DNA from: Omnitrophica bacterium GWA2_41_15
GTDB lineage: Bacteria > Omnitrophota > Gorgyraeia > Gygaellales > UBA12090
DNA: 64,000 bases
Assembly: GCA_919902675.1 (NCBI GenBank)
Contig: CAKKRH010000032.1
Coordinates: forward strand, 1,270-65,269
Direction of reading: 5' to 3'
Below are positions 3,489 through 54,524 of this stretch, one piece after another (position 1 is the stretch's first letter; each line of letters opens with the position of its first letter). Below the pieces are notes generated by a model. The model did no database searches and was not told the origin of the DNA. It saw nothing but the letters and a program-made list of their open reading frames with translations. Both the position numbers and the translations under genes were made by a program.

Positions 3489-3812
3489 CTACACGCTGCG
3501 GTAAAAACAAGACCTGTTTCCGGTATGACACGCCGCGCCCACCTGCCTCACCTTAATCAAAATGGCGTCAGCGTCACAATCGTAACTTAAGTCTTTAACA
3601 AACTGATAATGCCCCGAGGTTTCGCCTTTTACCCAGTATTCCCGGCGCGAACGCGACCAAAAACAGGTTTTTTTAAGCTTAATCGTCCTCTTTAAAGACT
3701 CCGCGTTCATATATGCCAGCATTAAAACTTCGTTGGTTTTATAATCTTGAATTATTGCCGGAATAAGCCCATTTTTATCATATTTAAAACCGATTGACTT
3801 TAAATTTATCAT
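3489..3812 (-). CDS. hisI: Phosphoribosyl-AMP cyclohydrolase
   Basis: 107 aa containing PAIIQD...[17 protein letters not shown]...[21 protein letters not shown]. It has the cyclohydrolase domain only, with no HisE part. Confidence 0.9.
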
Positions 3813-6589: not shown

Positions 6590-7185
6590 AAACTTCCCTT
6601 AGTAGATAATATTCCTTTTATCCGCGGGTCAATGCTCACTGCCTCCCTTAAAGCCCTGGCCAGGGCCTTAAAAACCGCCTCAATGATATGGTGTAAATCC
6701 TCACCTGAAATTATCTCAATATGCAAGGTTAGGCCCGCGTTAACCGCCAAAGCCCGCAAAAACTGTTTTAAATAATTTAGGCTGTATTCTTTACTATGGA
6801 CTATGGACTGTGGACTGTGGACTGTAAGCTTTGAGTACGGCCTACCGCTCAAATCCAGGCTTACCTCAACCAGGGCCTCATCAATGGGCACCGAGGCAAA
6901 ACCAAAACGGCGAATACCCTGTTTATCCGCCAAGGCTTTTTTTATGGCTAGACCCAAAACTATTCCCACATCTTCGTTGGTATGATGAATATCCACATCC
7001 AGATCACCCCGGGCTTTAAGCGTTAAATCAAACAAGCCGTGCCTGGCGAAAAGATTAAGCATATGGTTTAAGAAGCCTATCGGGGTGTGGATACTAAAAC
7101 TGCCTCTGCCGTCTAAATTTATCTTGAGGCTAATCCTGGTTTCCGTTGTCTTCCTCTCAATTACGGCTTTTCTTTTATTATTCAT
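6586..7185 (-). CDS. hisB: Imidazoleglycerol-phosphate dehydratase
   Basis: 199 aa: RKTTETRISLKINLDG...GDLDVDIHHTNEDVGIVLG...GEDLHHIIEAVFKALARAL. Confidence 0.9.
   Translation of the reverse strand: MNNKRKAVIERKTTETRISLKINLDGRGSFSIHTPIGFLNHMLNLFARHGLFDLTLKARGDLDVDIHHTNEDVGIVLGLAIKKALADKQGIRRFGFASVPIDEALVEVSLDLSGRPYSKLTVHSPQSIVHSKEYSLNYLKQFLRALAVNAGLTLHIEIISGEDLHHIIEAVFKALARALREAVSIDPRIKGILSTKGSL
6795..6825. repeat. Heptamer array (TATGGAC x2, TGTGGAC x2, TGT) inside the hisB CDS (in frame)
   Basis: Read directly from the sequence. It encodes TVHSPQSIVHS and uses the same word (GTCCACA/TGTGGAC) as the hisF element. Confidence 0.85.
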
Positions 7186-7220: not shown

Positions 7221-8441
7221 TTATTCAAACCTCGCCTGGACTGACTCCAGGTGTTTGTCTAATCCCTCGATACCGGCTATTTTTTCTAAAGGAGCTCGCG
7301 CGTTCTCCAGGGCTTTCTTAGAATAGCTGATGATATGGCTGGATTTAATGAAATCCGCCAAAGAGAGTCCGGAAAAAAACCTGGCTGTCCCGCCGGTGGG
7401 CAGGACATGGCTGGGCCCGGCAATATAATCCCCGATAGCTACCGGGCTATACTGGCCCAAGAATACCGCCCCGGCATTTCTTATTTTTTTAACAATCTTA
7501 CGGGGATTTTTAATCAATATCTCTAAGTGTTCAGGGGCTATCCTGTTAGCCACCTCAATAGCCTGCTCAAGATTTTTAACTAAAACCGCGTAGCCTGAAT
7601 TTATCTCCTGCCTGAAATATTTAGCTTGAGCCTTGGAGGTGGTAATCAAGACCGCCAGGCCGCCGCGATGCTCACCCTGGGCTAAAAGGTCAGCTTTAAC
7701 ATAAGAATTGTGGCTGTGGCGGTTGGCAATCACCACCAATTCCGTAGGCCCGGCCAGCATATCAATATCCACATAACCGTAAAGCTGGCGCTTGGCCTCG
7801 GTAACATAGGCATTGCCGGGCCCGACAATTTTATCTACCCGGCTAACCGTCTTTGTTCCAAAGGCCAGGGCGGAAATTGCCTGAGCTCCGCCTATCTTAT
7901 AAATTTCATCCACCTTAAGCAGGTCAGCCGCTGCCAGGATGTGAGGATTGATATTTCCGCTTTTATCCGGAGGCGTGGCCAAGGATATCCTTTTTACCCC
8001 GGCAATCTTAGCCGGCAAAACCGTCATATACACGGTAGAGACTAACGGGGCCTGTCCTCCCGGAACATATACGCCCACGGATTCAATAGGGCTAAACTGC
8101 TCACCCAAAAACACCCCGTCTTTATTTTTGATATTCCAATCCTTTTTTATCTGCCTTTTATAGAAATTAGACACATTCTCAATTATCTGCTTAAGGCTGG
8201 AAACGAAATCCGGACTGATATTCTGATAAGCCCCGCTGATTTCCGCCTGGGAAGAGCGGATCTGCTTTGGTAGGAGCTTAACCTTATCGTATTTTTTGGT
8301 ATAGCGTGTTAAGGCTTCGTCTCCGTATAAACGCACATCTTCAACAATCCTGGCTACCCGGGAAATAACCTTAGGCTTGCGGCAGAATGAGCGGTTATAA
8401 ATCTTATCTAATTCTTTTGAACCGTATTTTATGATCTTCAT
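7221..8441 (-). CDS. hisD: Histidinol dehydrogenase
   Basis: 406 aa: ...GVYVPGG.APL.STVYMTVLPAKIAGV...GPGNAYV..AK...DMLAGPTE...QGEH..., a typical HisD pattern. Confidence 0.9.
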   Translation of the reverse strand: MKIIKYGSKELDKIYNRSFCRKPKVISRVARIVEDVRLYGDEALTRYTKKYDKVKLLPKQIRSSQAEISGAYQNISPDFVSSLKQIIENVSNFYKRQIKKDWNIKNKDGVFLGEQFSPIESVGVYVPGGQAPLVSTVYMTVLPAKIAGVKRISLATPPDKSGNINPHILAAADLLKVDEIYKIGGAQAISALAFGTKTVSRVDKIVGPGNAYVTEAKRQLYGYVDIDMLAGPTELVVIANRHSHNSYVKADLLAQGEHRGGLAVLITTSKAQAKYFRQEINSGYAVLVKNLEQAIEVANRIAPEHLEILIKNPRKIVKKIRNAGAVFLGQYSPVAIGDYIAGPSHVLPTGGTARFFSGLSLADFIKSSHIISYSKKALENARAPLEKIAGIEGLDKHLESVQARFE

Positions 8442-8470
8442 CTAAGTTGGGTTAAATACCTTTTGTGAAG

Positions 8471-8562
8471 CTCTAAACACTAAACAAACCCAAAAACTAA
8501 AACCCAAAACATCTATTTTTGAGTTTTGTATTTATGGTTTTGAGTTTGTTTAGAATTTAGGG
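8471..8562. repeat. Long imperfect hairpin of CTAAAC/CCAAAA words (copy 2 of the 5917 family)
   Basis: Left arm ctctaaacactaaacaaacccaaaaactaaaacccaaaac, right arm gagttttgtatttatggttttgagtttgtttagaatttaggg, partially complementary. Located between alaS and hisD. Confidence 0.7.
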
Positions 8563-8583
8563 TTTCGGATTTAAGGTTTATGA

Positions 8584-11196
8584 TTATATCGCCTGACGGA
8601 TGATTTCCTTGAACTTCTCCAGGGCTTTATCCAGACCCGCGGGATTATCTCCTCCGGCCTGGGCCATGTTCGCCCGGCCTCCTCCGGAACCTTCAATTAA
8701 AAGGGCGGCTTCTTTAATTATTTTTGAAGCGTCCAGGCCCTTGTCTACTAAGTCAGCGGATAAGCTGACTGTCAGCCAGGCCTTTTGAGCTTGCGATGAA
8801 CCCAGGCAAAGGGCATAAGAAGAAACCCTGGATTTGATCAAATCGCTTAACTGGCGCAGTAGGCCTATATCCACATCCTGATACCGCGAGCAAATCAGGC
8901 TTGAACCTTTAATGACCTCAGACTTACCGGCCAATTCTACCGTATCGCGCTTAAACAGCTCCAGCCTTAAGCGGGAAAACTCCTTTTCTAAATTCCCTAA
9001 TTTTCTTAATTTATCCTCCAGTAAGGCTAAAACCTTATCCTCTGAAGATTGGGTTAAATCTATAAGCTTAGTAATAATTTCCTGGGCCTGCCTATAGGCC
9101 TCCCAGGCGGCCTTACCGGTTGAGGCCTCTATTCTACGCACCCCCTTAGCGATAGAACCTTCAGAAATTATCTTGAATAAACCGACCTGGGAGGAATTCT
9201 CCAGGTGGGTCCCTCCGCAAAGCTCTTTAGAAAAATCCTGAATATCCACCAGGCGCACTTTGTCCTCATATTTCTCATTAAACAAGGCAATAGCGCCTGA
9301 TTTCTTTGCCGTCTTCAGGCTCATCGCTCTTTGCGAAATTTCCAAACTTAACAAAATTTTCTCCTGGACTAAATCTTCAATCCGCTTCAGGTTTTGCGCG
9401 GATATTTTATCGGAATGAATAAAGTCGAAACGCAAACGATCAGGCTCAACTAAAGAGCCGGCCTGCTGGATATGAAAACCGAGAACCTGCCGAAGTGATG
9501 CCTGTAAAAGATGGGTCGCGGTATGGGCCCGGGCGATTGCCTTTCGCCTGGAGGAATCAACCTGACAATTAACCAAATCAGCGCTTTTTAGTTTCCCCGC
9601 GCTCAAGGTGCCGCGATGCAGATACACCTTTCCTTCTTTTTGGGTATCCTCTACCTCAAAAACGCTGTTTCCTTTTATGATTCTGCCTTGATCGCCGACC
9701 TGCCCTCCGGACTCCGCGTAAAAAGGGGTTTTATCCAAAACAATCTCGCAGGGTTCTCCCCGGCCAACCGACCGGACCACTTCACCATCCTTAATTATCT
9801 TTAAAATCCCGGCTTCTTTCAGAGAAAGCTTTTGATAGCCTGAAAATTTTGTTTCTTCCAATTTGGAAATCAAGGCGCTTGCGGTAAAAATCCCCCGGCT
9901 GATTTTACTGGATTTTTTGGAACGTTCTTTCTGTTTTTCTAAATCCTGATTAAATTCTGCTTCATTAATTTCAAAGCTATTCTCTTTTGCCCAGGCTTTG
10001 GTAATTTCAAAAGGTATGCCGTAAGTATCATAAAGCTTAAAAGCGGTATGCCCGCTAGACTCAAGGCCGGATGAAGCATCCTTAAATTCATTTTTCAAAA
10101 TCCTCGGGGCATCTTTTAAAACCGAGATAAAATTCTTCTCCTCAGTATTTATAACCTCGGCAATATTTTTTGCTTTAGCCTTTAACTCCGGATAAACCCC
10201 AAAGAAAATATCCGCCACAATCGGAGTTAGTTTATACAGAAACGGCTCTTTTATTCCCAGGGTATGTCCGTGAAACCCGGATTTACGGATAAGTTTACGG
10301 ACCACATATCCTCTTTCTTCATTAGAAGGAATGACCCCGTCGTAAATAGCGAAAACAATCGCTCGAATGTGGTCAGCGATGGCATTGATCAGCGGATAGC
10401 GGATAGCGGATAGCGGATAGCTAAGAATGGCTTTAATTATGGGCTTGAAGATATCAATTTCAAAGTTGCTTTTGACTCCCTGCAGGACTGAGGCCATTCG
10501 CTCTAAACCCATACCGGTATCTATGTTCTTATTGGGAAGCGGCTCTAGGACTCCTTTGGCAAGGCGGTTAAACTGGGTAAAGACCAGATTCCAAATCTCC
10601 ACAAACCGGCCGCAGGAGCAAGCCGGACCACAATCCGGCTTTCTACAGCCGGCATCAAGCCCATAATCGAAAAAAATCTCCGAGCACGGGCCGCACGGCC
10701 CGTTGGGGCCGTCTTCAATGGCATTAGCCGGCCAGAAATTATCTTTGGCTCCTAAGCGAACAATCCTCTCCTTGGGAAAATTGACCTTTTTGCTCCAAAT
10801 AGCGCGGGCCTCGGCATCATCCTGATACACCGAAACCCAGAGCACTTCAGGCTTAAGCTTTAACTCTTCGGTCAGAAATTCCCAGGCCCAGAGAATTGCC
10901 TCTTCTTTAAAGTAGGAGCCAAAAGAAAAATTACCCAGCATTTCAAAGAAAGTATGGTGACATGCGGTTACCCCCACCTTATCCAGGTCATCGGTTCTCA
11001 AACAACGTTGACAGCTGACTGCCCGGTTAAAATCTGAAACCTGCCCCATAAATTCATTCTTGAATTGGGCCATCCCAGCGGAAGTAAAAAGCACCGTAGG
11101 GTCATCCACGGGAACAAGCGAAGCTGAAGGTATAAGCTTATGCGCTCTTTTGGCGAAAAAATCAAGATATCTTTTACGTAATATATCCGTATTCAT
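8584..11196 (-). CDS. alaS: Alanine--tRNA ligase
   Basis: 870 aa with a class II core (FTSAGM, GNFSFGSYFK), an editing domain (HTATHLL...CGGTH) and a C-terminal DHHA1-like region (GGGRANMAQAGG). Confidence 0.95.
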   Translation of the reverse strand: MNTDILRKRYLDFFAKRAHKLIPSASLVPVDDPTVLFTSAGMAQFKNEFMGQVSDFNRAVSCQRCLRTDDLDKVGVTACHHTFFEMLGNFSFGSYFKEEAILWAWEFLTEELKLKPEVLWVSVYQDDAEARAIWSKKVNFPKERIVRLGAKDNFWPANAIEDGPNGPCGPCSEIFFDYGLDAGCRKPDCGPACSCGRFVEIWNLVFTQFNRLAKGVLEPLPNKNIDTGMGLERMASVLQGVKSNFEIDIFKPIIKAILSYPLSAIRYPLINAIADHIRAIVFAIYDGVIPSNEERGYVVRKLIRKSGFHGHTLGIKEPFLYKLTPIVADIFFGVYPELKAKAKNIAEVINTEEKNFISVLKDAPRILKNEFKDASSGLESSGHTAFKLYDTYGIPFEITKAWAKENSFEINEAEFNQDLEKQKERSKKSSKISRGIFTASALISKLEETKFSGYQKLSLKEAGILKIIKDGEVVRSVGRGEPCEIVLDKTPFYAESGGQVGDQGRIIKGNSVFEVEDTQKEGKVYLHRGTLSAGKLKSADLVNCQVDSSRRKAIARAHTATHLLQASLRQVLGFHIQQAGSLVEPDRLRFDFIHSDKISAQNLKRIEDLVQEKILLSLEISQRAMSLKTAKKSGAIALFNEKYEDKVRLVDIQDFSKELCGGTHLENSSQVGLFKIISEGSIAKGVRRIEASTGKAAWEAYRQAQEIITKLIDLTQSSEDKVLALLEDKLRKLGNLEKEFSRLRLELFKRDTVELAGKSEVIKGSSLICSRYQDVDIGLLRQLSDLIKSRVSSYALCLGSSQAQKAWLTVSLSADLVDKGLDASKIIKEAALLIEGSGGGRANMAQAGGDNPAGLDKALEKFKEIIRQAI
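10392..10421. repeat. Heptamer array (GCGGATA x4.3) inside the alaS CDS (in frame)
   Basis: The sequence reads gcggata gcggata gcggata gcggata gc. It encodes LSYPLSAIRYPLI just before the conserved IADHIR motif. Confidence 0.85.
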
Positions 11197-20020: not shown

Positions 20021-20226
20021 AATTGCTCTCTTTTCTTAGCGCAGCACAAAAACCAAATAACCAATTTCTAATAATCAAATAATAACCAATCACCAATTAT
20101 CAAACGTTCGGTTATTGATAATTCGGCCGCGTTCAAACCCCGCCCTTTAGAGCGGGGAAAAGTTACGCCGCTCTTTTGTTTATTTTGGTTATTGGTTATT
20201 AAATAGCTACCGCTTTTTAGTGGTAG
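20021..20226. repeat. Intergenic long hairpin built from AATAACC/GGTTATT words with inner GC hairpin
   Basis: The left side reads caaataaccaat...aataaccaatcaccaatt and the right side reads ttggttattggttatt. There is an inner ccccgc/gcgggg hairpin. The stem aatagctacc/ggtagctatt overlaps the stop of the next gene. Confidence 0.7.
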
Positions 20227-20514
20227 CTATTTGGTGGTTTTGGCCGCGGGACTTGCTGTCTTGGCGGATTTAGCGGTTTTAGCGGAAGCTGTCCCCGCGG
20301 CTGTACCCGCGGCTGCGGGGGCGGCAGCACCTTCAGCTTTTTCTTTCTTTACCACCTTTATCTTTAGAACCTTTATCTTGGGCAGGCCGAAAACAGAGCT
20401 CTCCTGGTTAAAAGAACCCTTATCCATAAAATACTTCATTCTCTCGACACGCTTTAAGACCGACCTTTGCTTTCTTCCTTTTAAAGATAAAGCTAATGAA
20501 GGGTGTATTGACAT
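20227..20514 (-). CDS. Small basic protein (conserved N-terminus, Ala/Lys-rich tail)
   Basis: 95 aa: MSIHPSLALSLKGRKQRSVLKRVERMKYFMDKG...GLPKIKV. From memory it resembles the 'small basic protein' family of PVC-group bacteria. Not verified. Confidence 0.45.
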   Translation of the reverse strand: MSIHPSLALSLKGRKQRSVLKRVERMKYFMDKGSFNQESSVFGLPKIKVLKIKVVKKEKAEGAAAPAAAGTAAGTASAKTAKSAKTASPAAKTTK

Positions 20515-26489: not shown

Positions 26490-27176
26490 CTAACGCGATA
26501 AATAATAATAAGGATTTTGCGAGATGCAGCCTTTCCTTATCTGAAAATGCATTAATCCGCCGCATTGAGCGATAGCCATCCCGCGGGTTATATAATCACC
26601 CGGCTTGACTAATATACGCGACAATAAAGCGTAAACACTCATCAGGCCCTCAGGATGAGAAATAATTATGGTCTTTCCATAACCGCTGAATTTATCTTGC
26701 GCGAAAACAACCCTTCCTGAAGCTGAAGCCACAATATCGGATTGCGCGTATAGGCGCAGGGTAAGGCCCTTGCTGGGTGAATTCCCGATTTTATCCCCAA
26801 AGCCATTGACAATTTTACCCTTCGCCGGCCAGATAAAATCTTCCGGCACACCGGTATTCAATGAATCCATGGAAAGCGCTCTATGTTTATCAGGGATAAG
26901 AATTGACTGTCCGCTGGCAATGAGAGTTGAATCAGCGATAGCATTAGCCTTGAGGATTTCCTCGATACTAACCCCGTAAATCCTGGCAATCCTCCACAAG
27001 GTCTGACCCTTTTGGACGCGGTGATACAGCACTTGCGACGGTTGTATTGTTTTTTGAGGCACGGACAACGCGGCCTGCCGGGGGGCTAACTCAACCGTGG
27101 CACAGCCTGATAAAACAGTTAACAAGGAGCAGATGACAGTCGAGAGAAAATATCTTTTAAATCTTTTATTGAGCAT
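26490..27176 (-). CDS. LysM + M23 peptidase lipoprotein
   Basis: Start trimmed to MLNKRFKRYF... (ATG 27176), with lipobox LSGC. LysM segment YHRVQKGQTLWRIARIYGVSIEEILKAN and an M23-like C-terminus. The longer ORF-track start overlaps the tRNA. Confidence 0.8.
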   Translation of the reverse strand: MLNKRFKRYFLSTVICSLLTVLSGCATVELAPRQAALSVPQKTIQPSQVLYHRVQKGQTLWRIARIYGVSIEEILKANAIADSTLIASGQSILIPDKHRALSMDSLNTGVPEDFIWPAKGKIVNGFGDKIGNSPSKGLTLRLYAQSDIVASASGRVVFAQDKFSGYGKTIIISHPEGLMSVYALLSRILVKPGDYITRGMAIAQCGGLMHFQIRKGCISQNPYYYLSR

Positions 27177-27203
27177 CTTGGCTAAATTTACAAACGGTAA
27201 AAG

Positions 27204-27274
27204 AGCGGGTGAGCGGAATCGAACCGCCATAAACAGCTTGGGAAGCTGCCATTCTACCACTGAATTACACCCGC
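27204..27274 (-). tRNA. tRNA-Gly (anticodon CCC)
   Basis: The minus strand reads GCGGGTGTAATTCAGTGGTAGAATGGCAGCTTCCCAAGCTGTTTATGGCGGTTCGATTCCGCTCACCCGCT. It folds as a cloverleaf with 7-bp acceptor, D arm ATTC/GAAT, anticodon loop TTCCCAA and T loop TTCGATT. CCA is not encoded. Confidence 0.9.
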
Positions 27275-28548
27275 ACACATTCCTCAACTAATTTTATCGA
27301 ACAAAACTCACTGCACATAGTGCAGACATCCTCGACTTTCGGTTTAGAGCTATGGCGATATTCCCGGGCTCTTTCCGGGTCAATTGACAAGGATATCTGT
27401 TTATCCCAATCCCTTTTTTTTCTGGCCAAAGACATTTCCCTGTCCCAGCTTAAGGCGCCCTTAACCCCTTTAACAATATCCGCGCTGTGAGCGGCAATCC
27501 TCGAGGCAATCACCCCTTCCCTCACATCATCCACCGAAGGATGCCTTAAATGTTCGGCCGGGCTGACCACGCATAGAAAATCCGCGCCCAGGCTTGCCGC
27601 TAACGCCCCTCCGATAGCCCCCGAGATGTGGTCCCGGGTTGAAGCGATATCAGTTACCAGCGGCCCTAAAACATAAAATGGGGCGTTGTCGCAAAGCTTT
27701 TTTTGGAGGTCTATGTTTTTTTGAATCTGATCCAAAGGCACATGTCCCGGCCCCTCAATCATCACTTGGACATTTCTTTTTCGTGAACGCCGGGCGAGTT
27801 TTCCCAAAAGCCTCAACTCCCCTATCTGGGCGCTATCAGTAGCATCCAATATTGAACCCGGCCTTAGTCCATCGCCCAAACTTAAGGTAACATCATACTC
27901 ATACGCGATATCCAGGATTTCATCGAAACACTCATAAAACGGGTTTTCTTTTTTATTGTTAAACATCCAGTTGGCTAATATCGCCCCTCCCCGGCTGACG
28001 ATATCCAAAACACGCGGACTTTTCTTAACCAACGCGGCTGTTTTTTGAGTAACTCCGGAGTGGATAGTCATAAAATCCACTCCGTCTTCGGCCTGAGAAC
28101 GAATAACCCCCAGGATATCCTCGGCAGTCATCTTAAGCAGAGAACCTTTATTTTTAGCCGCGCTTTGAGCCGCCTCATATATAGGAACGGTACCAAAAGG
28201 AATATCCGAATCCTTAATCAGAGTTTTTCTTATTTTAGGGATATCTCCGCCTACGCTTAAATCCATTACCGTATCCGCGCCGACTGAAACCGATACCTTT
28301 AACTTTTGAAGCTCATCGCCGACATCAATTTCATCGCCGGATGTCCCGATATTCACGTTTATTTTAGTAGACAAGCCTTTACCAATCGCGCATGGTTTCT
28401 TAATCCGACGTTTTTTATTATTAGGAATAACAATTATCCCCGAAGCGATACCCTTCTTCAAAAAAGAAATACTTACCCCTTCCTTTTTAGATACCGCTTC
28501 CATCAGTTCGGAGGATTTATTATTCAATGCTAATTCTAATTGAGTCAT
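27265..28548 (-). CDS. thiC: Phosphomethylpyrimidine synthase
   Basis: 427 aa, ThiC-like throughout, with the C-terminal CTMCSEFCSIK cluster motif. The last 10 nt overlap the tRNA-Gly 5' end. Confidence 0.9.
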   Translation of the reverse strand: MTQLELALNNKSSELMEAVSKKEGVSISFLKKGIASGIIVIPNNKKRRIKKPCAIGKGLSTKINVNIGTSGDEIDVGDELQKLKVSVSVGADTVMDLSVGGDIPKIRKTLIKDSDIPFGTVPIYEAAQSAAKNKGSLLKMTAEDILGVIRSQAEDGVDFMTIHSGVTQKTAALVKKSPRVLDIVSRGGAILANWMFNNKKENPFYECFDEILDIAYEYDVTLSLGDGLRPGSILDATDSAQIGELRLLGKLARRSRKRNVQVMIEGPGHVPLDQIQKNIDLQKKLCDNAPFYVLGPLVTDIASTRDHISGAIGGALAASLGADFLCVVSPAEHLRHPSVDDVREGVIASRIAAHSADIVKGVKGALSWDREMSLARKKRDWDKQISLSIDPERAREYRHSSKPKVEDVCTMCSEFCSIKLVEECVRV

Positions 28549-31959: not shown

Positions 31960-32072
31960 TTTTTAATTACTCCTTTTTAAATTTATTTAGTCTATGAAAT
32001 AGCTTGTGCTGCTCAAACCTAACTCAATAAACTCAATGAACTCTATAAACTCAATAAACTCTATAGACTGAG
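31960..32072. repeat. Intergenic array of ACTCAATAA/ACTCTATAA 9-mers
   Basis: ctcaataaactcaatgaactctataaactcaataaactctatagac. The same word family occurs in 35736-35813. Confidence 0.7.
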
Positions 32073-35735: not shown

Positions 35736-35813
35736 CCCGCACCTTGATTAGTTCGTTGAGTCTTTTGAGTTTAAGAACTCAATAAACTCAAGCAACTCAA
35801 CAAACTCTATAAA
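35736..35813. repeat. Intergenic hairpin of ACTCAA words
   Basis: gttgagtcttttgagttt ... aaactcaagcaactcaac. Confidence 0.7.
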
Positions 35814-36377
35814 CTAATTAACCCGCTCCACATAGGCGGCGGTCCTGGTATCCACCTTAATTTTATCCCCGATATTGATAAATAAAGGAACTAAAATCGT
35901 GGCACCGGTTTCAACCTTTGCCGGCTTGTTCCCGCCTTTAGCCGTATCCCCTTTTATTCCGGGCTCGGTTTCCACGATTGCCAGCTCAATAAAATTAGGC
36001 ATTACAATATTTAAAACCTGATTCTTGTAAAAGAATCCTAATACCTCCAGATTATCCTTAAGAAACCTGGAATTCTCTCCCAGGACATCGAATGAGATTG
36101 CCAACTGGTCATAATTCTCCTGGTCCATAAAATGATACATCTCGCCTGAGGCATAAAGATACTGCAGTTTTCTCTGCTCCACAAAAGCTTCTTCTACCGT
36201 ATCCTGGCCCCTGAAGGTGCGCTCCAGCAAGCCTCCGGTGCGCATATTCTTTAGCCGGGTGCGCACAAAAGCCGAGCCCTTGGCCGGCTTGACATGCTCG
36301 GTCTCCGTGATCTGAAAAACCTGGCCGTCCATAAGAATAGTTACCCCAACCTTAAATTGATTTATCGAGAACGCCAC
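35814..36377 (-). CDS. efp: Elongation factor P
   Basis: 187 aa: ...[19 protein letters not shown]... Confidence 0.93.
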
Positions 36378-37410
36378 TTAACACCTCAAAGCCTTTCTTG
36401 GTTACCAATACCATATCCTCTATCCTGATCCCAAACTTACCCGGAAGGTATACTCCCGGCTCAACCGTAAAAACCATTCCCTCTCTGATTATAGCATTAT
36501 TTTTATTGGATATAGAGGGCTCTTCGTGAACCTCTAAACCTATCCCATGGCCTAAACTGTGGCCAAAAAAACTCCCGTATCCGAAGCCGGCAATATGCGC
36601 CCTAGCAATATCATCCACAACACTTATCGCCACCCCAGGGCGAATTGCCTCTATCGCCTTGACTTGGGCCTCCCGGACGATTCTGTAAACCTTACGCTGA
36701 ATAGTTGTTATTTTACCCAAGAAAAAAACCCTTGTCAAGTCAGATTTATAACCGTTTATCTCTGCCCCCATATCTACCAGCACCATATCATTCTTACATA
36801 GCCGTCTTTTGGTGATGCCGGCGTGTGGAAAACAAGAATTTGTGCCGCTGGAAACAATTATCTTAAAAGAGGCGGCCTCTGCCCCTTTCCGGCGGATAAA
36901 ACGTTCCAGCTCACCAACAATCTCCGGCTCGGTCAACCCGGGCCGGAGATAACCTTTAATAAACCTGAAAGCTGAAACCGCGATATTCACTGCCGCGCGG
37001 ATTTTCTTAAGCTCATCCCGGCTTTTAATTTGCCTTAAGGATTCAACTATATTAAAGGTATCTAAGAATTTAGTCTTTTTGCCAAGGCCATCCTTTATCT
37101 TGGCATACTCGGCATAAGTAAGGCCGCGAGCCTCAAACCCCAGACGTTTGATTTTTAATTCCTTGACCAAAGCACAAACATCTTTAAACAGATTCTTGTA
37201 CTGAAAAACCTCTATATTTTTGAGGTTTTTCCTGGCTTCTTCTAAATAGCGAAAATCAGTGATAAAATAAACCTTGGGTTTAGAAACCAAGAGATAAGAA
37301 TCATGAGCGCTAAAGCGGCTCAAATAAGAAACATTGGCCTCTTGAGAAACTAAAAAACCGTCCAAAGAACTGTTTTTCAGCTTTTCCCGGAAGGAATTCA
37401 GGCGGGACAT
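36352..37410 (-). CDS. pepP: M24-family Xaa-Pro aminopeptidase
   Basis: 352 aa: [16 protein letters not shown]...[13 protein letters not shown]...EPG.Y..G..GIRIED. Confidence 0.85.
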
Positions 37411-40148: not shown

Positions 40149-43100
40149 TCACAAGAGATAATTTACCAAGATCTTAATCTGTTCCGCATCGAATGGCTTA
40201 CCCACTACTGGTATGGCCTTCCTTTTAACATATTCCTTTAGCTTCTCAATTTCTTCCGCATATCCCGACATGATTAATATTGGCATATCTTTTGTCTGCG
40301 CGTTCTCCTTAAGCATACCAATTACTTCATAACCACTCATCGGCATTTTTATATCCAGCATTAACAAATCAGGAATAGCAGTTTTTATTTTTTCTAATGC
40401 TTCCTTTCCATCACCGGCTTCGCTAAAATTAGAATACCCGCTTGCCTGTAAAATTTTCCTTAAAACATTCCTCACTTCTGGCTCATCATCAACAATCATA
40501 ATGGACTTCTTTAATCTTGTTTCTCTTTCGCTAACACAAAAACCGTAGACCCGCTCCAATAAATCCTTACTATTACTTGCATCGCCAGGATAGGTAGCGT
40601 ATCCATATGAAAAACCCGTCCTAAGTTGTTCATCAATTTCAAAAACAGACACTTTTATAATCATCTTCAATCGTGTCATCATGTTGGATGCCTCTTGTTT
40701 GTTAACTTGTATAAAAACAATGATCTCATTTTCACTCCCTTTAATTACAAAATCCCTGCTTCGTATAACTTTTTCTAAAGCCGTCCCTATTGAAAGGAAA
40801 ACTTTTTGTACTCTATCTTTTCCGGACTCTTTCTCAACCTCTAAATAATTATCTAACCTGATAATAAATATTGAAAATTCCTTATTTTCTTTTTTAGCTT
40901 CTCTAATTCTCTCCTCTATCGTTTCGCGCAGGAACTCTTCTTTGTTATACTTCGGCAGGGTAAAGCTAAACTTGCTGCCCTTGCCAAGGCGGCTTTCCAC
41001 CCAAATCTTACCGTGATGCAGCTCAACCAGGGCTTTAGCTATAGAAAGGCCTAAACCCGTGCCTTTTTCGCCGAATCCGGGGACGCGGTCAAACTGCTGA
41101 AACTTGCTAAATACCTTAGGAAGGTCATCCCCTGAGATGCCCACACCAGTATCAGCTACGCCGCACTCTACTTCATTTTCTTTCTCTAAAACCGAAATCT
41201 CTATTGAGCCTTCTTTAGTGAATTTAAGAGCGTTGGCGATAAGGTTGGTCAAGACCTCGATTATCTTCTCCGTGTCAGCATAAATATACAGCTGTTTTTC
41301 AGGAAGGTTGACTTTCAATTCCAGCCCAGCATCTCTTGCGCGTTTAGAAAAAGAGGAGATAAGTCCACTAATTAAACTGTTAAGGTCAGCTGAGCCTCTT
41401 TTTAGCTCCACCTTTCCCGCCTCAATCTTGGAGATATCCAAGAGGCTGTTGATAATATTTGCCAATCTATCTATATTCTTCTTTGCGGTAGTAAGAATTT
41501 TTTCCTGCTTTTCATTTACCTTGCCGGCAAGTCCGTCTAAAACTAGAGCCAGGCCTTCTTTGGTAATAGAAAGCGGGGTCCTGAGTTCATGGGAGACTAT
41601 AGAGACAAATTCGGTCTTCATTCGATTCACTTCTTTCTCTTTGGTGATATCTCTAAGAATAATAACTATACCGATAGTTTCGTTCTTTGCGTTTCTCACC
41701 GGCGCTGTATCACAGTGTAAGGATACAGGCTCTCCCTGCACAGATACCGTTAGATCCTTAAAAACTAAACAGCTAATATCTGCACACTTTTTTAATACCT
41801 CCTCTAAACCAATGGCCTCGGCCTTTTCTTTCCATATTTTAGCCGTAACCTGCTCCTCGAACCTAAAACCCAACAACTGCCTGGCCCGCGGATTTATAAC
41901 CATCACCTCACCGCATTCATCCACCATCACCACGCCCTCAACCATGCTCTCTACCATACTCTCCATCTTTGACTTTTCAGCAGTGATCACTGCCCGCAGT
42001 CTTTCAATAGCATTAGAGGCCTGATTGGCAATGGTGCAGGTAAGCTCAATATCCTCTTCTGAAAAGGCATTCTCTTTACAGCTGGAGACATTAATCATCC
42101 CGACAGTTTTACCATGCGCTGTAAAAGGAACATTAAAGAAACTATGTAATTCCTTAAATTCCCTTTTTTCTTTATGGTTTTGGCTATCGGTAGCCAAACC
42201 ACGGCCTTCTGGCCTGGAGGTTACCTCTGTAGTGCTGGGAATAAGCATGGCGCTCAGGCGTTTCTTACGGATATTCTCTCCAGTTAAGATAGAGGTAGAG
42301 TCAATCAGGCCATCTTTTACCTCATCCGTAAATTTAGCACTTTCGGAATAGACGGGCTTTAGAGTAATGTTGGCGGTATGGGTATCAAATAAAAGCGAGG
42401 CGCAGATATCATAATTGATTGTCTTGAACAATGATTCCATGATAAACTTGAGTAACGTCTGATAATCCAAGGTATAAGAAATAGCATTGGAAATCTCATA
42501 TAAAACAGATAATTCCAAAGTCCTCTCTTTTACCTTCTTCTCGAGGTCTTTAGAATATGATTCAATCTCAGCCTTTGCTTTGGTAAGTTCGGCGGTTCGT
42601 TCTTCAATCATCCCTTCTAAACTTTTAGAATATTTTTCAATTTCTGCTTTTGCCCCTGCCAAATCCTCCATCATATTCAAGGTTGCTTCCTGGGTTTGGG
42701 CTAAATCTTTGGTGCGCTCCTTAGCCTTCTTCTCTAAAGTCTTGGCAAATTCCTCTAATTCTGCCTTAGACTTCTCTAAGTTAGCAATCAGCCCATTTAT
42801 CCGGCGCATATCGTGGGCTACGCCGACAATGCCGATTATTCGTCGTTCTTCAGGAGCTTTCAGCTTTCGGCTTTCAGCTTTCGGCTCTAGATCTTCTGCT
42901 GATAGCTGAGAGCTGATGGCTGATGGCTGACTCTCATACATTACTGAACCAGAGAAACTCATCGGTATCTTCCCGCCATTTTTAGTCACATAAATCAAAT
43001 CAAAATCGCGTACCGAACCTTCCTCAACCAGTTTCCTTAGGCGTGTTCCCTTAAGGAGAAGTTCTTCCTCAAAAATATTTTCCACCGGCTGACCGATCAG

Positions 43101-43589
43101 CTCTTCTTCGGTATATCCTAATAAATCTAAAGTGGCTTTATTTGCTGTCTTAATTACGCCTTCAGGGTCAACCACAATTAAGGTATCAATCATATTGGCG
43201 ATGATAGAGTCCACGTAGCCTTTATCCAGCAATTGCGCCCTCTGTCTTTTTAAATCCTGGAGCATTTGATTAAAGGCTTTAGCTAATTGGCCAATCTCAT
43301 CAAAGCTGGTGATTTTCACCTCTGCATCAAAATTGCCCTGCCGTACGGTAGAAATTGTTGAGAGGATTGATTTTAGCGGCTTATTTAAAAGAAAGTAAAA
43401 TACCACGATAATAAGGATGCTTAAACTTAAAGTATCTATGAACGCTTCCAGAATAGGATATTGCCTAATCGCCTCAAACTTAGCAAAGATAAACATAATT
43501 ATTAACTCAAATAACGCTACCATAGAAATGAGCTTAAAGGCAATACTAAATTTTAGGCGATGTTGTCTTTTCAAGCCGTTATCCTTCAT
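40149..43589 (-). CDS. Hybrid sensor histidine kinase (2TM-HAMP-PAS-coiled coil-GAF-PAS-HisKA-HATPase-degenerate GGDEF-REC)
   Basis: 1146 aa. H-box FVSIVSHELRTPL, G-box GTGLGLSIAK and a C-terminal REC (IMIVDDEP...LMLDIKMP). Between HATPase and REC lies a GGDEF-like fold with RSRD-FVIKG-SENEI in place of RxxD-x5-GGEEF. Confidence 0.85.
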   Translation of the reverse strand: MKDNGLKRQHRLKFSIAFKLISMVALFELIIMFIFAKFEAIRQYPILEAFIDTLSLSILIIVVFYFLLNKPLKSILSTISTVRQGNFDAEVKITSFDEIGQLAKAFNQMLQDLKRQRAQLLDKGYVDSIIANMIDTLIVVDPEGVIKTANKATLDLLGYTEEELIGQPVENIFEEELLLKGTRLRKLVEEGSVRDFDLIYVTKNGGKIPMSFSGSVMYESQPSAISSQLSAEDLEPKAESRKLKAPEERRIIGIVGVAHDMRRINGLIANLEKSKAELEEFAKTLEKKAKERTKDLAQTQEATLNMMEDLAGAKAEIEKYSKSLEGMIEERTAELTKAKAEIESYSKDLEKKVKERTLELSVLYEISNAISYTLDYQTLLKFIMESLFKTINYDICASLLFDTHTANITLKPVYSESAKFTDEVKDGLIDSTSILTGENIRKKRLSAMLIPSTTEVTSRPEGRGLATDSQNHKEKREFKELHSFFNVPFTAHGKTVGMINVSSCKENAFSEEDIELTCTIANQASNAIERLRAVITAEKSKMESMVESMVEGVVMVDECGEVMVINPRARQLLGFRFEEQVTAKIWKEKAEAIGLEEVLKKCADISCLVFKDLTVSVQGEPVSLHCDTAPVRNAKNETIGIVIILRDITKEKEVNRMKTEFVSIVSHELRTPLSITKEGLALVLDGLAGKVNEKQEKILTTAKKNIDRLANIINSLLDISKIEAGKVELKRGSADLNSLISGLISSFSKRARDAGLELKVNLPEKQLYIYADTEKIIEVLTNLIANALKFTKEGSIEISVLEKENEVECGVADTGVGISGDDLPKVFSKFQQFDRVPGFGEKGTGLGLSIAKALVELHHGKIWVESRLGKGSKFSFTLPKYNKEEFLRETIEERIREAKKENKEFSIFIIRLDNYLEVEKESGKDRVQKVFLSIGTALEKVIRSRDFVIKGSENEIIVFIQVNKQEASNMMTRLKMIIKVSVFEIDEQLRTGFSYGYATYPGDASNSKDLLERVYGFCVSERETRLKKSIMIVDDEPEVRNVLRKILQASGYSNFSEAGDGKEALEKIKTAIPDLLMLDIKMPMSGYEVIGMLKENAQTKDMPILIMSGYAEEIEKLKEYVKRKAIPVVGKPFDAEQIKILVNYLL
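42192..42216. repeat. 25-nt element inside the kinase CDS, identical to one in cheW
   Basis: agccaaaccacggccttctggcctg is identical to 50477-50501. On the coding strand it gives RPEGRGLA. A flanking tggYtttggct inverted partner is present in both copies. Confidence 0.9.
42854..42931. repeat. In-frame heptamer inverted array (CAGCTTT/CGGCTTT versus GCTGATA/GCTGATG) inside the kinase CDS
   Basis: Five units lie at 42854-42888 and five complementary-type units at 42898-42931. It encodes QPSAISSQLSAEDLEPKAESRKLKAPEE. The word family is the same as the 1527-1575 intergenic hairpin. Confidence 0.8.
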
Positions 43590-50555: not shown

Positions 50556-53500
50556 TTATTTATCCTCCCCTTCCTCTTCCACTACCTCCTGAGCAGAAAC
50601 CTTAAACCTGCGCAAAGCGGTGCGCAATTGCTCGGCTAAGCCGGACAAGTTTTGCGCGGATGAGGTCATCTGCTGCATCGCTTGAGTCTGCTGTTGAATG
50701 GAAGTAGACATCTCGGATGAGCCTGTAGCTGCCTGCTCAGCAGTCAAAGCGATTTCCTCAATAGTCTTGGCTACCTGTTGCGCGCCTCCTGCCTGCGCGG
50801 TAGTGGCAGCGGAAACTTCCTGGGCTTTAGAAGTAATTTCCTGAGTGCCTACGCCAATCTGGCCTAAGATAGCCAGCGCCTGATTAACGATATCAATACT
50901 CTCGGAAACCTGCTGGGTTCCGGCAGTCATACCCGTAACCACCTCAGCGGTAGAATCAGTTATCGTGCTCACCATACCTTCAATTTGCACCGCGGCTTTT
51001 TTGGTCCCTTCAGCTAATTTTCTGATTTCATCAGCAACTACGGCAAAACCCCGGCCTGCCTCTCCGGCATGGGCGGCTTCAATAGCGGCGTTTAAGGCCA
51101 AAAGATTAGTCTGGTCAGCAATATCTTTGGTCGTACCGACGATTACCGCGATTTCCTTGGCGCGCTTATCTAAGTCTTTAACTGTAGTAGTATTGGCTTT
51201 AACAATATCATCTATGGTCTTCAATCTTCCGGCTGCCTGCTTGCCTGATTCCGTGCCTTTCTCTGCCAGTTTGGCTGCTTCCTGAGTAGCCTCAGCCGCT
51301 GCCTTGGAATTAGCCGCGCCTTGTTGTATAGACTTAGAAAGCTCAGCTACTACTTTGGTAGAGGTCTCTAATTTCTTAGACTGCTCCCTTGAGCCGGCAG
51401 CTATTTCTTGGGTGGTCTTGGCAACTTGGCCTAAGGCAGTATTTACCTGCCGGGAGGCATTAGATAATTGATTGGAAGAGCTAGCAACCTTGGTAGAGCT
51501 TTCCATAGCCAAGCGAATAGTTTTTCCTAAGTCATCAAAGGATTTGTTTAAGGCATCAGTCAAGGTCTTGATATCTCCTCTTGCCTCCAAGGCATATCTT
51601 TGTGAAATGTCTCCTTTGGAGAGGGCAAGGCTAAGCCGGATTACTTCCTGAACCGGTTTGGCGATAGAATCAATCAAGGTGTTCAAGGTGTCCACGATAT
51701 TTTTCCAACTGCCGCCAACGCCTTCCACTTTTGCCCGTTCGCTAAGCTTTCCTTCCACACCAGCTACCTGAGCCACTCGGGAAACTTCATTGGCTAAGCG
51801 GTTTAAATTATCCACCATGCTATTTAGTGTATCTTTTAACTGTAGAATCTCCCCTGCTGCTTCTACAGTTATCTTTTGAGTTAAGTCTCCCATAGCAATA
51901 GCTGTGCCAACCTTAGCAATGTTTCTCACCTGAGCAGTAAGGTTAGCCGCCATAGCATTGACCCTGTCAGTAAGGTCCTTCCATGTCCCGGCTACGCCCG
52001 GCACTGCTGCCTGTCCGCCGAGTTTTCCTTCCGTGCCTACTTCTTTGGCTACGCGGGTAACTTCTGCGGCAAAAGTATTTAATGAATCCACCATAGCATT
52101 GATCGTATTCTTAAGCTCTAAGATTTCACCCATTGCCTCTACGGTAATCTTCTGAGCCAGGTCCCCCTTGGCAACTGCGGTGGTTACTAAAGCAATGTTA
52201 CGCACCTGCGAGGTAAGGTTAGCCGCCATAGCATTAACCCTGTCAGTAAGGTCCTTCCATGTCCCGGCTACGCCCGGCACTGCTGCCTGTCCGCCGAGTT
52301 TTCCTTCCGTGCCTACTTCTTTGGCTACGCGGGTAACTTCTGCGGCAAAAGTATTTAGTGAATCCACCATTTTATTGATGGTATCTTTTAAGGCTAACAT
52401 CTCTCCCTTAACCTCTACAGTGATTTTTTGCGCCAGATCTCCGTTAGCAACTGCGGTAGTAACCTGAGCAATGTTACGCACCTGAGCAGTAAGATTTCCC
52501 GCCATAGCATTGACGTTATCCGTAAGGTCTTTCCATGTCCCGCCAACACCCGGCACTGCTGCCTGTCCGCCGAGTTTTCCTTCCGTGCCTACTTCCTTGG
52601 CCACGCGGGTAACTTCTGCGGCAAAAGTATTTAGTGAATCCACCATTTTATTGATGGTATCTTTTAAGGCTAACATCTCTCCCTTAACCTCTACAGTGAT
52701 TTTTTGCGCCAGATCTCCGTTAGCAACTGCGGTAGTAACCTGAGCAATGTTACGCACCTGAGCAGTAAGATTTCCCGCCATAGCATTGACGTTATCCGTA
52801 AGGTCTTTCCATGTCCCGCCAACACCCGGCACTGCTGCCTGTCCGCCGAGTTTTCCTTCCGTGCCTACTTCCTTGGCCACGCGGGTAACTTCTGCGGCAA
52901 AAGTATTTAGTGAATCCACCATTTTATTGATGGTATCTTTTAACTGTAGCACCTCTCCGGCAGCCTCAATGGTAATCTTTTGCGCCAGGTCTCCTTTGGC
53001 AACTGCGGTGGTTACTAGAGCAATGTTACGCACCTGCGAGGTAAGGTTAGCCGCCATAGCATTGACTCTATCGGTTAAATCTTTCCATAGACCGCCAACA
53101 CCCGGCACTGTTGCCTGGCCGCCTAACTTTCCATCCGTGCCTACTTCTTTGGCTACGCGGGTAACTTCTGCGCCAAAGGTGTTAAGTGAATCTACCATTT
53201 TATTAATCGTATTCTTCAACTCCAAGATTTCACCTTTCGCCTCAACCGTAATCTTCTGCGCCATATCTCCGTTAGCAACTGCGGTAGTAACCTGAGCGAT
53301 GTTACGCACCTGACTGGTTAAGTTTCCCGCCATAGCATTGACGTTATCCGTAAGGTCTTTCCATGTCCCGCCAACACCCGGCACTGCTGCCTGTCCGCCG
53401 AGTTTTCCTTCCGTGCCTACTTCCTTGGCCACGCGGGTAACTTCTGCGGCAAATAGGTTTAAACTATCCACCATCTTATTGATGGTCTCTTTTAACTGTA

Positions 53501-54524
53501 GCACCTCTCCGGCAGCCTCGATGGTAATCTTTTGCGCCAGGTCTCCCTTGGCAACTGCGGTAGTAACTAAAGCAATGTTGCGCACCTGTGCAGTAAGGTT
53601 AGCTGCCATAGCATTAACCCGGTCAGTAAGGTCCTTCCATGTCCCGGCTACGCCCGGCACTGCTGCCTGTCCGCCGAGTTTTCCTTCCGTGCCTACTTCC
53701 TTGGCCACGCGGGTAACCTCTGCGCCAAAAAGAGTAAGATTATCTACCATTTTATTGATTGTATTCTTTAGCTCCAGAATTTCACCTTTCGCCTCAACCG
53801 TAATCTTCTGCGCCAGATCTCCGTTAGCAACTGCGGTAGTAACCTGAGCGATGTTACGTACCTGACTGGTTAAGTTTGCTGCCATAGCATTAACGTTATC
53901 TGTAAGGTCCTTCCAAAGACCGGCTACTCTTTCTACCTTTGCCTGGCCGCCTAATTTTCCTTCTGTGCCTACCTCTTTGGCAATACGGGTAACTTCTGCG
54001 CCAAAAGTATTTAGTGAATCCACCATAGCATTAATGGTATTTTTAAGTTCAAGTATCTCGCCTCTTGCTTCCACGGTAATCTTCTGAGATAAATCTCCTT
54101 TGGCTACTGCAGTAGTAACCTGAGCGATATTACGCACCTGAGCGGTAAGGTTTGAAGCCATGGCATTGACGTTGTCAGTAAGATCCTTCCATGTCCCGGC
54201 CACACCCTGAACTGCTGCCTGGCCGCCGAGTTTACCTTCCGTGCCTACTTCTTTGGCCACGCGGGTAACCTCACCGCTAAAAGCTGTTAAGAGATCAACC
54301 ATACTGTTATAGGAATCCGCTAATTCGCCAAAGATATCTTCTCTTCCTGATTTTAACTTTTTAGTGAGATCGCCTTTTCTCACAGCTTCTAAGGCCTCTA
54401 ATAAATCTCTTAACTGTTTTTCTGACCCCTCGCTAAAGCCCTCTTCTCTTTCCAATGTTGCAACATCAGCCTCTGATTCGCCAAATAAAGCCTTCTTTGC
54501 CGCTTGTCTAATTGGCTTTGCCAT
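50556..54524 (-). CDS. Soluble methyl-accepting chemotaxis protein with poly-HAMP array
   Basis: 1322 aa with no hydrophobic TM segment. It has an N-terminal HAMP, ten tandem 92-aa units and a C-terminal MCP signalling domain ([24 protein letters not shown]). Confidence 0.9.
51525..54284. repeat. Ten tandem 276-bp (92-codon) units encoding paired HAMP domains
   Basis: The unit is [84 protein letters not shown]. Units 1-9 are highly similar and unit 10 is diverged. Confidence 0.9.
52327..52943. repeat. Perfect period-276 tandem duplication (2.2 units, 100% identity)
   Basis: 52327-52667 is identical to 52603-52943 base for base. The identical shadow ORFs 52428-52634 and 52704-52910 in the track confirm the 276-nt offset. 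Confidence 0.95.

Follow-up and report, generated by a model that had tools for sequence, protein, structure and literature searches.

Results

A heptanucleotide hairpin within a hybrid sensor kinase gene

The DNA analysed in this study is a 64-kb stretch (64,000 nucleotides, nt; hereafter the window) from a member of Candidatus Omnitrophota. This placement comes from AlaS, which is 91-94% identical to those of its relatives, and from HisB, which is 100% identical to the HisB of an Omnitrophota metagenome-assembled genome at NCBI. A hybrid sensor kinase gene on its minus strand, which sits downstream of a chemotaxis cluster, contains two facing arrays of 7-nt units that form an inverted repeat. 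The kinase has the Pfam architecture transmembrane segment-HAMP-PAS1-coiled coil-GAF-PAS2-HisKA-HATPase-GGDEF-REC. The features of the locus are listed below with the evidence for each in brackets (ORF, open reading frame; TRF, Tandem Repeats Finder; AF2, AlphaFold2). Loci used for comparison carry L numbers and proteins P numbers.

40149-43589, minus strand: hybrid sensor kinase, 1146 amino acids (ORF, Pfam)
42804-43217, minus strand: PAS1, about residues 125-262, split by the insert (Pfam, alignment, AF2 model)
42840-42938, minus strand: whole H-beta/I-beta loop of PAS1, 99 nt, residues 218-250, YESQPS...PEERR (loop lengths, codon table, AF2)
42855-42886, plus strand: arm 1, 14-nt dimer units, antisense to the kinase (TRF, sequence, codon table)
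42887-42897, no strand: spacer or loop of the hairpin, TCTAGATCTTC (sequence, fold)
42898-42930, plus strand: arm 2, GCTGATA/GCTGAGA/GCTGATG, inverted to arm 1 (TRF, inverted repeats)

The hairpin (42855-42930) consists of about 4.6 AGCTTTC/GGCTTTC units facing about 4.7 GCTGATR units across a spacer of 11 nt. Read directly on the plus strand (42854-42931), its left half is GAGCTTT CAGCTTT CGGCTTT CAGCTTT CGGCTCT and its right half, after the spacer, is GCTGATA GCTGAGA GCTGATG GCTGATG GCTGACT. This reading bears out the arrangement of five units facing five that had been described in an earlier note on this DNA. For arm 1, TRF reports an AGCTTTC array of period 7 (42855-42886, 4.6 copies, 88% matches) and, at 42856-42886, a fully matching array (100%) of period 14 with 2.2 copies, which shows that the true unit is the dimer CAGCTTT+CGGCTTT. 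Arm 2 is reported as GCTGATA, with period 7, 4.7 copies and 88% matches. An inverted-repeat search finds arms of 31-40 nt with 73-74% Watson-Crick complementarity, and the spacer between them, TCTAGATCTTC, holds the overlapping palindromes TCTAGA and AGATCT.

The repeat is translated. The sense strand of arm 1 reads CCGAAAG CTGAAAG CCGAAAG CTGAAAG and codes for PKAESRKLKA, while that of arm 2 reads CAGCCAT CAGCCAT CAGCTCT CAGCTAT and codes for QPSAISSQLSA; the peptide quoted in the earlier note, QPSAISSQLSAEDLEPKAESRKLKAPEE, corresponds to residues 221-248 of the minus-strand ORF 40149-43589. The insert amounts to 81 extra nt, a multiple of three, and is free of stop codons within an intact ORF of 1146 amino acids. 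A G at 42869 (C on the sense strand) makes codon 241 a CGA, where the A of the sister unit (sense T; CTGAAAG) would give an in-frame TGA. The kinase copy carries the unit variant that avoids a stop at this codon. A plus-strand ORF that runs across the hairpin (42487-42909) was considered and discounted as spurious, since the gene on the opposite strand is well supported.

The earlier note had taken the insert for a linker that joins the PAS region to the coiled coil, which our analysis contradicts. The Pfam PAS_9 match runs from residue 137 to residue 220, aligned to positions 4-87 of the 103 in the profile, and breaks off exactly at the start of the insert, residue 220. Past the insert the last PAS strand, IIGIVGVAHDMRR, resumes, and homologues likewise resume with IIGIVGVA(R/H)DMR. 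An AF2 model of the segment shows a normal PAS fold in which strands E94-105 and E138-147 are separated by a coil over 106-137 with low predicted local distance difference test scores. These three observations place the insert in the last beta-hairpin loop of PAS1. From loop lengths at 46 loci and in 33 proteins, the canonical H-beta/I-beta loop measures 15-18 nt (5-6 residues; found in 33 homologous loci), which gives a net insertion of 81 nt or 27 residues. In the model these 27 residues are predicted to be disordered, and the PAS fold is normal apart from them.

An exact look-up found no identical kinase protein on record. A homologue search with the N-terminal part of the kinase gave nothing closer than 57% identity, neither a second copy nor a close orthologue, and the comparison with kinase orthologues that had been proposed made use of the PAS family and neighbouring genes instead.

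Heptanucleotide arrays form a dispersed population

A census of the 64 kb found seven strict arrays of period 7, in comparison with none or one for every other period between 3 and 12; a looser scan gave 14 and 0-5, respectively. Such arrays concentrate outside genes, since 15 of 21 lie wholly or partly in the non-coding 15% of the window and the remaining six in the coding 85% (p = 1e-8). Most are laid out as an array and, after it, the same array inverted; this gives long hairpins between genes. Four arrays are in frame within genes, those of the kinase, HisF, HisB and AlaS. Several words occur at more than one locus of the window: ACAGTCC in both hisF and hisB, AACCTCT twice and TTGGTTA twice. 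Loci with an insert in the PAS loop hold 1.1-1.3 arrays per 10 kb and loci with a short loop 0.24, with other periods at 0.1 or below.

The earlier note had linked the kinase repeat to the following intergenic hairpin:

1525-1589, no strand: rpsP-yajC intergenic hairpin, located between the stop codon of rpsP and the ribosome-binding site of yajC (sequence, TRF, ORFs)

This hairpin, between yajC (1227-1505) and rpsP (1594-1839), is built of TCAGCTA TCAGCTA TCGGCTG TCAGCTG facing GCTGAAA GCTGATA GCTGAAG GCTGATA, and its folds as DNA have -26.3 and -24.0 (z -7.4 and -6.6). The longest string common to both sites is the 12-mer GCTGATAGCTGA, present in arm 2 of the kinase and at 1561-1572; the kinase spacer shows no similarity to the centre of the intergenic hairpin. 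Arrays of at least three YRGCYNN (TCRGCTN) units number four in the window and about 0.05 in first-order shuffles, so the kinase and rpsP-yajC hairpins do share one family of alternating TCAGCTN/TCGGCTN words, as had been claimed. The k-mer census that had been put forward as the refuting test does not suit the question. Most single words are not enriched (CAGCTTT 10 against 8.2 expected, CGGCTTT 10 against 10.3), yet the array family is real, and its signal lies in arrays rather than in word frequency. GCTGATA is in excess (18 against 2.9 expected), and since its extra copies are strand-biased (18 against 6) and stand in unrelated coding contexts, this is a codon effect. The single-word census was rejected as a test of the family, its words being at expectation except for GCTGATA.

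The claim that intergenic and intragenic arrays belong to one population also holds when the syntenic relatives L088, L089 and L102-L105 are compared. At the rpsP-yajC spacer, TCRGCTN arms are present in L089 and absent from L088 and L102-L105. In all six loci, TCRGCTN arrays are in frame in HisB, where the window has ACAGTCC, and the PAS loop of a distant homologue, L002, carries CAGCCCT/CTGARRG of the same family as the window kinase. The kinase arm at 42855-42888 is identical at 34 of 34 positions to the HisB array of L089 (13897-13930), and differs from those of L102 and L088 at 2 and 10 of 34 positions, respectively. These comparisons suggest copying of arrays between loci.

A short run at 36961-36979, within an M24 peptidase gene (ORF 36352-37410), reads AAACCTG AAAGCTG AAACC (2.7 units of the CAGCTTT word) and may be a decayed member of the family or a chance occurrence.

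The same PAS loop holds unrelated arrays in other genomes

Every member found of a PAS subfamily marked by VMYE/VMYA ahead of the loop and IIG behind it (about 20 homologues) carries an insert of 33-180 nt in this loop. These members come from metagenome-assembled genomes (MAGs) labelled Omnitrophota, Planctomycetia and 'Proteobacteria', and from contigs of several metagenomes. Among the 16 unique PAS inserts that were tested, 13 are significantly periodic at 7 nt, the hairpin is significant in 7, and the frame is kept in 14. Their words, which include GGACCAR/TGGTCAM, GCGGATA/TATCCGC, GGACGTA, NCAGAGG, CGACRAG and AATCGTC, are mutually unrelated, and the encoded peptides differ in sequence, charge and length (11 to 60 residues).

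These data bear on the view that the protein itself is under selection, the 27-residue loop rich in Ser, Ala, Glu and Lys giving PAS1, for example, a flexible segment for docking or regulation. The persistence of an insert through the whole VMYE subfamily and the open frame of 14 of 16 inserts would agree with this view, and disordered protein regions are known to arise from tandem repeats (PMC9879509). However, the peptides at the same site are unrelated, and the one DNA family is read on either strand, as KLSAFGFQLSAL in the HisB array of L089 and as PKAESRKLKA in the window kinase, two peptides that bear no relation to each other. Neither does AF2 give the loop any structure. We consider it highly improbable that the loop was selected as a protein feature.

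Since 7 nt is not a multiple of three, the gain or loss of one unit could also flip the kinase frame, and the array might have been selected as a reversible contingency switch for phase variation. Consistent with this, the insert measures 78 nt and is in frame in L009 and L092, whereas in L095 it measures 71 nt, one unit less, and is out of frame, with flanks 91.6% identical and the rest of the gene intact in frame +2. The inserts of L005 and L006 are likewise out of frame with the downstream coding sequence intact. Several observations speak against such a switch. Slippage is lowered by the degeneracy of the window units (88% matches); arrays of this class are also found in the essential housekeeping genes hisB, hisF and alaS, where switching off would be harmful; and other arrays of this genome do not vary among same-strain assemblies. 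Moreover, the out-of-frame cases come from lineages that have diverged by 6-9% and may be assembly errors or pseudogenes. A contingency switch is therefore very unlikely in our view.

One or several origins of the inserts were considered with a neighbour-joining tree of the PAS domains, in which most bearers cluster and six are interspersed; the tree was set aside, 110 residues being too short for this purpose. Other changes were noted in and around PAS1 as observations in their own right. In L007 (= L020; 1538-1640) the coiled coil and GAF have been deleted, and a TAGCGTN array in the PAS1 loop, which leads straight into the beginning of PAS2, looks like a recombination breakpoint. At about residues 173-176 of PAS1 a poly-Glu run (IFAEEEEEE...FKG) varies from 0 to about 14 residues among homologues, which is presumably a GAA/GAG trinucleotide repeat. 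P0004 and P0006 have a conserved Cys-rich insert of 20 residues (CPxxxxxxDCPxxxxxGxHC) at the H-beta/I-beta loop, which does not look like a heptamer product and could serve as a site for metal binding or redox chemistry. In L089, about 8 kb upstream of alaS, fragments at 265-1790 with PAS and REC matches to the C-terminal part of the window kinase stand in a different arrangement; PAS1 falls beyond the sequence retrieved for this locus.

Arrays are replaced at fixed sites in HisF, HisB and AlaS

The three other in-frame arrays of the window are in conserved enzymes:

4143-4200, minus strand: hisF CCACAGT/ACTGTGG hairpin, in frame in ORF 3809-4609 (TRF, fold, alignment to PDB HisF 4evz)
6793-6825, minus strand: hisB ACAGTCC direct array, in frame as TVHSPQSIVHS (TRF, PDB alignment, DNA comparison, 120 homologues)
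10391-10421, minus strand: alaS AGCGGAT array, 4.4 perfect copies, in frame as LSYPLSAIRYPLI (TRF, protein alignment, DNA comparison)

Compared with solved structures of HisF, the HisF array lengthens a beta-hairpin loop by 16 residues, and at the same site HisF of L088 has a hairpin of other words (TCTATAG/CTATCGA). The window hisB has an AAGCTT remnant at the 5' edge of its array, followed by the word of its own hisF; five relatives have TCRGCTN there with near-identical flanks. In about 120 HisB proteins of Omnitrophota, the segment from SGRPY to EYSLNYLKQFL is almost always periodic at 7 residues and uses few word families. Its length is that of the ordinary hairpin in other phyla, so arrays appear to overwrite the loop rather than to lengthen it. 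A similar picture is seen in AlaS, where orthologues down to about 60% identity (P0096-P0124) have peptides of the same length and 7-residue period made from other words (DYRLLTIDYRLI, NYQLSTINYQLI); in DNA, four ATCCGCT units in the window stand against four ATCAACT units in L089, at equal length. Between lineages at 85-92% AlaS identity the arrays are wholly different and the flanks almost identical. A few AlaS orthologues (P0106, P0109, P0110 and P0115) have extra insertions at the array site. An apparent indel in L098 was considered as a strain polymorphism and rejected, as it is a run of N, and a cluster of single-nucleotide differences lies in hisH at a contig end.

The spacer between alaS and hisD (8441-8584) shows that an array site can also be filled or empty. 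In the window it holds 150 nt of heptamer hairpin with AAACCCT-type arms, in L088 and L102-L105 it is 13-15 nt long, and in L089 it holds a different hairpin. Such patchiness would suit a mobile palindromic element, similar to a Rickettsia palindromic element (RPE), a miniature inverted-repeat transposable element or a REPIN (a hairpin of paired repetitive extragenic palindromic, REP, sequences), that was inserted as a unit by an enzyme of its own or of the host and landed by chance in frame in a tolerant loop. The distribution of the rpsP-yajC TCRGCTN hairpin, at odds with relatedness, and the perfect match of the kinase arm to the HisB array of another genome, while orthologous HisB arrays differ at up to 10 of 34 positions, point in the same direction, as do GC-rich hairpins nested in heptamer hairpins (L089, L093 and window 20040-20400), which recall the small dispersed repeats embedded in heptamer arrays of cyanobacteria. 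On the other side, the kinase and rpsP-yajC copies have only heptamer words in common, and not their ends, length or centre. Comparison of the filled and empty alaS-hisD sites shows neither a clear target-site duplication nor terminal inverted repeats other than the arrays themselves, and several coding sites have been overwritten at constant length with no insertion. Among the ORFs of the window, whose genes are housekeeping and chemotaxis genes only, a search for mobilising enzymes found no transposase, REP-associated tyrosine transposase (RAYT), Y1-transposase domain or reverse transcriptase. Taken together, these data make insertion of a mobile element unlikely.

Folding of the kinase repeat

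Both strands of the kinase repeat were folded, as the earlier note had proposed, and the hairpin proved to be strong on one strand and weak on the other. As RNA, the plus strand folds with -45.8 kcal/mol (z -5.35), which none of 200 shuffles equals, while the mRNA-sense strand folds with -28.2 kcal/mol (z -1.6), as well as or worse than 12 of 200 shuffles. On the plus strand the periodic mismatches of the stem are G-U pairs, on the sense strand C-A. DNA parameters leave the ranking unchanged (-19.4, z -3.9 for the plus strand; -12.7, z -1.1 for the sense strand). Scans for terminators and promoters around the hairpin gave nothing at the site; 42855-42930 has no terminator-like structure on either strand and no T run after the stem. 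In an Rfam scan of the whole window the sole match is a tRNA-Gly, with no family at the hairpin. We found no evidence for an RNA function of the kinase hairpin. The strand asymmetry of folding was also considered as a clue to function and rejected, because it is inconsistent among window hairpins and PAS inserts.

A stem-loop may nevertheless have been kept for its own sake, in the mRNA as a translation pause or RNase site, or in an antisense transcript or single-stranded DNA as a signal for replication or recombination or as a cruciform; the periodicity of 7 nt would then be no more than the way in which the stem is built. In favour of such a functional hairpin are the strong fold of the plus strand (as RNA and as DNA), the significant folding of seven PAS inserts made of unrelated words, the HisF hairpins of different words in the window and in L088, in which both arms must have changed together, and the fact that intergenic arrays are mainly hairpins. 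However, it is the mRNA strand that folds weakly; the good fold is antisense, where neither promoter nor terminator evidence exists, and the hairpins of the window have no consistent strand preference. Stems are lacking from about half of the homologous PAS inserts and from the arrays of HisB and AlaS, all of which are direct repeats, and Rfam offers no match. In addition, quasi-palindrome correction, an established mutational mechanism, yields matched arms without selection. A functional nucleic-acid hairpin is thus an unlikely explanation for the kinase repeat.

Other features of the window

Several further observations were made. A 9-nt unit, AACTCAATA, is repeated in tandem in two separate intergenic spacers, at 32021-32069 (5.4 copies) and 35776-35815 (4.4 copies). 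The short GC-rich hairpins nested in the centres of heptamer hairpins are found at 20040-20400 in the window, at 19800-19900 in L089 (GCCGCCGATGGCGGC...GGCGGTGGC) and in the PAS loop of L093 (CCTGCCCGC...GCAGGCGGG); they look like a second type of small element that targets, or is trapped in, hairpin loops. A minus-strand ORF (50556-54524) contains 8.6 copies of a 276-nt unit with 82% identity (51909-54269); its product, a methyl-accepting chemotaxis protein of the poly-HAMP type, has 10 matches to HAMP. The gene for tRNA-Gly(CCC) is on the minus strand at 27203-27274 and is overlapped by the mechanically called ORFs 26490-27287 and 27265-28548, so that the true starts of these ORFs are probably further downstream.

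Discussion

In this study, period 7 is in specific excess in the window, word families recur at unlinked coding and intergenic loci, and arrays are replaced at fixed sites. The copies in genes are also strongly biased towards surface loops and towards being in frame and free of stops. Judged from the genomes compared, the population of arrays appears to be lineage-wide, holding the same surface loops in many relatives while its sequence keeps changing. On these grounds we consider the feature in the kinase to be probably one copy of a heptanucleotide repeat resembling the short tandemly repeated repetitive (STRR) sequences of cyanobacteria, which was made by slippage, template switching and array copying and is tolerated as a disordered loop. 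In such a process, replication slippage would make arrays grow and shrink, intrastrand template switching would create inverted arms and keep them matched, and ectopic conversion would now and then overwrite an array with a copy from elsewhere in the genome. Selection would act as a filter only, retaining copies that keep the frame, bring no stops and lie in a permissive surface loop, and the hairpin would have no dedicated function in the kinase mRNA.

Several of our findings weigh against this explanation, however. Arrays are identical in four same-strain assemblies (L098-L101, 99.6-99.98% identity) and again in four assemblies of a sister lineage (L102-L105), so no ongoing instability of length is seen. 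They persist at the same loops to about 60% identity in HisB and AlaS and to about 45% in PAS, although simple repeats normally decay over such divergence; the explanation then needs a further element, either selection or a process that renews the arrays. A change of word affects the two arms of a hairpin jointly, as in HisF of the window and L088 and in several PAS loops, which is also predicted by selection for pairing. In addition, AGCGGAT, AATAACC/TTGGTTA and AGAGAAC arrays recur in MAGs labelled Omnitrophota, Planctomycetia and Desulfobacteraceae (window 10391-10421; L007/L020 7009-7041; L059 13810-13840 and 14556-14608; L067 8760-8777). Such recurrence across phyla exceeds random word choice and is not predicted if the words start as random slippage seeds. 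Finally, with no close kinase orthologue found, the history of this particular copy is inferred from other loci.

What keeps the arrays at these sites is a matter on which we can only speculate. A process specific for heptamers that writes or copies arrays, with a vocabulary common to several phyla (AGCGGAT, TTGGTTA and TCAGCTN among others), could be active in Omnitrophota and other uncultured lineages, although we regard this as doubtful. It may be carried out by a repair pathway or polymerase that works in a 7-nt register, or be templated by RNA or oligonucleotides. If it exists, it would keep loops and spacers permanently occupied and swap arrays between loci, and the in-frame copies would be a standing source of fast-changing surface loops in sensors and enzymes instead of passive debris.

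Apart from mechanism, the findings have practical implications. Since the HisB, HisF, AlaS and PAS loops hold arrays in dozens of genomes, slippage, word change, copying and selection for an open frame become measurable at orthologous sites. The inserts are also a hazard for annotation, as they split genes (three PAS homologues are called as two ORFs), truncate domain matches and, being disordered loops, could be taken for linkers.

In the literature consulted we came across no account of heptamer arrays from Omnitrophota, nor of heptamer hairpins in frame at orthologous loops. Several known systems invite comparison. Long simple-sequence repeats of heptanucleotides are in general excess in bacteria (Mrazek et al. 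2007, as summarised in PMC4679880 and PMC4692102), and paired inverted arrays have been noted in Xanthomonas (PMC4692102). In phase-variable loci, such as the heptanucleotides of Haemophilus influenzae hmw1A (PMC8262952), one unit shifts the frame, as it does between L009 and L095; the window units differ in being imperfect, in occurring in housekeeping genes too and in showing no length variation within the populations compared. The tandem repeats of Borg elements are reported to be fast-evolving (PMC9879509) and translated into low-complexity disordered segments, which is similar to our observations. In contrast to them, the window arrays are often inverted, are chromosomal and recur at orthologous sites, and their unit is 7 nt, so that the peptide has a period of 7 residues and is read in all three frames.

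The TAACTGA heptamers of marine Beggiatoaceae, some Cyanobacteria and Bacteroidetes (PMC4679880) are another case in which a heptamer word occurs at many loci (2-6 copies of TAACTGA) and in distant phyla with no evident mechanism of transfer. However, theirs is a single word, almost all direct, placed just upstream of start codons, with 10 cases only within ORFs, where its stop codons limit placement (PMC4679880). The Omnitrophota arrays, in contrast, have many words, many hairpins and coding copies in loops.

RPEs share more of the coding features. Ogata and colleagues reportedly described them in 2000 as selfish palindromic repeats lying in frame in protein-coding genes. Like RPEs, the present arrays include in-frame hairpin repeats, also in housekeeping genes, at surface loops that leave the protein intact, and the family is intergenic as well. 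RPEs differ in having a full-length consensus of 100-150 bp; the window copies have only a 7- or 14-nt word in common and vary in length and centre. To our knowledge, heptamer periodicity has not been described for RPEs. With regard to REP sequences and REPINs, whose imperfect palindromes of 20-40 bp have a conserved head and go with a RAYT gene in the genome, the kinase arms are arrays of 32-33 nt without a fixed head, and the Y1-transposase domain is absent from the window ORFs.

STRR sequences have been known since about 1990 and have been used for strain typing. As in heterocystous cyanobacteria, our arrays consist of tandem 7-nt units of a few dispersed word families with an excess of period 7, are mostly intergenic and vary in length and sequence between related genomes, with slippage proposed as their source. 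The word TCAGCTN differs from those of STRR1-3 (CCCCAGT, TTGGTCA, CAACAGT), to which TTGGTTA and CCACAGT in the window and ATGGTCA in L001 are loosely similar. Unlike STRR sequences, the window arrays are usually inverted pairs, with copies in frame in conserved enzymes and in PAS, and arrays of Omnitrophota stay at the same protein loops phylum-wide while their words change. Their hosts, too, are not cyanobacterial, being Candidatus Omnitrophota and MAGs labelled Planctomycetota, Desulfobacterales and others, which extends heptanucleotide repeats beyond cyanobacteria to an uncultured phylum. The repeats described here resemble STRR sequences in their tandem 7-nt units, dispersed family, period-7 excess and intergenic bias, and the copy in the sensor kinase is one of the coding exceptions to that bias.

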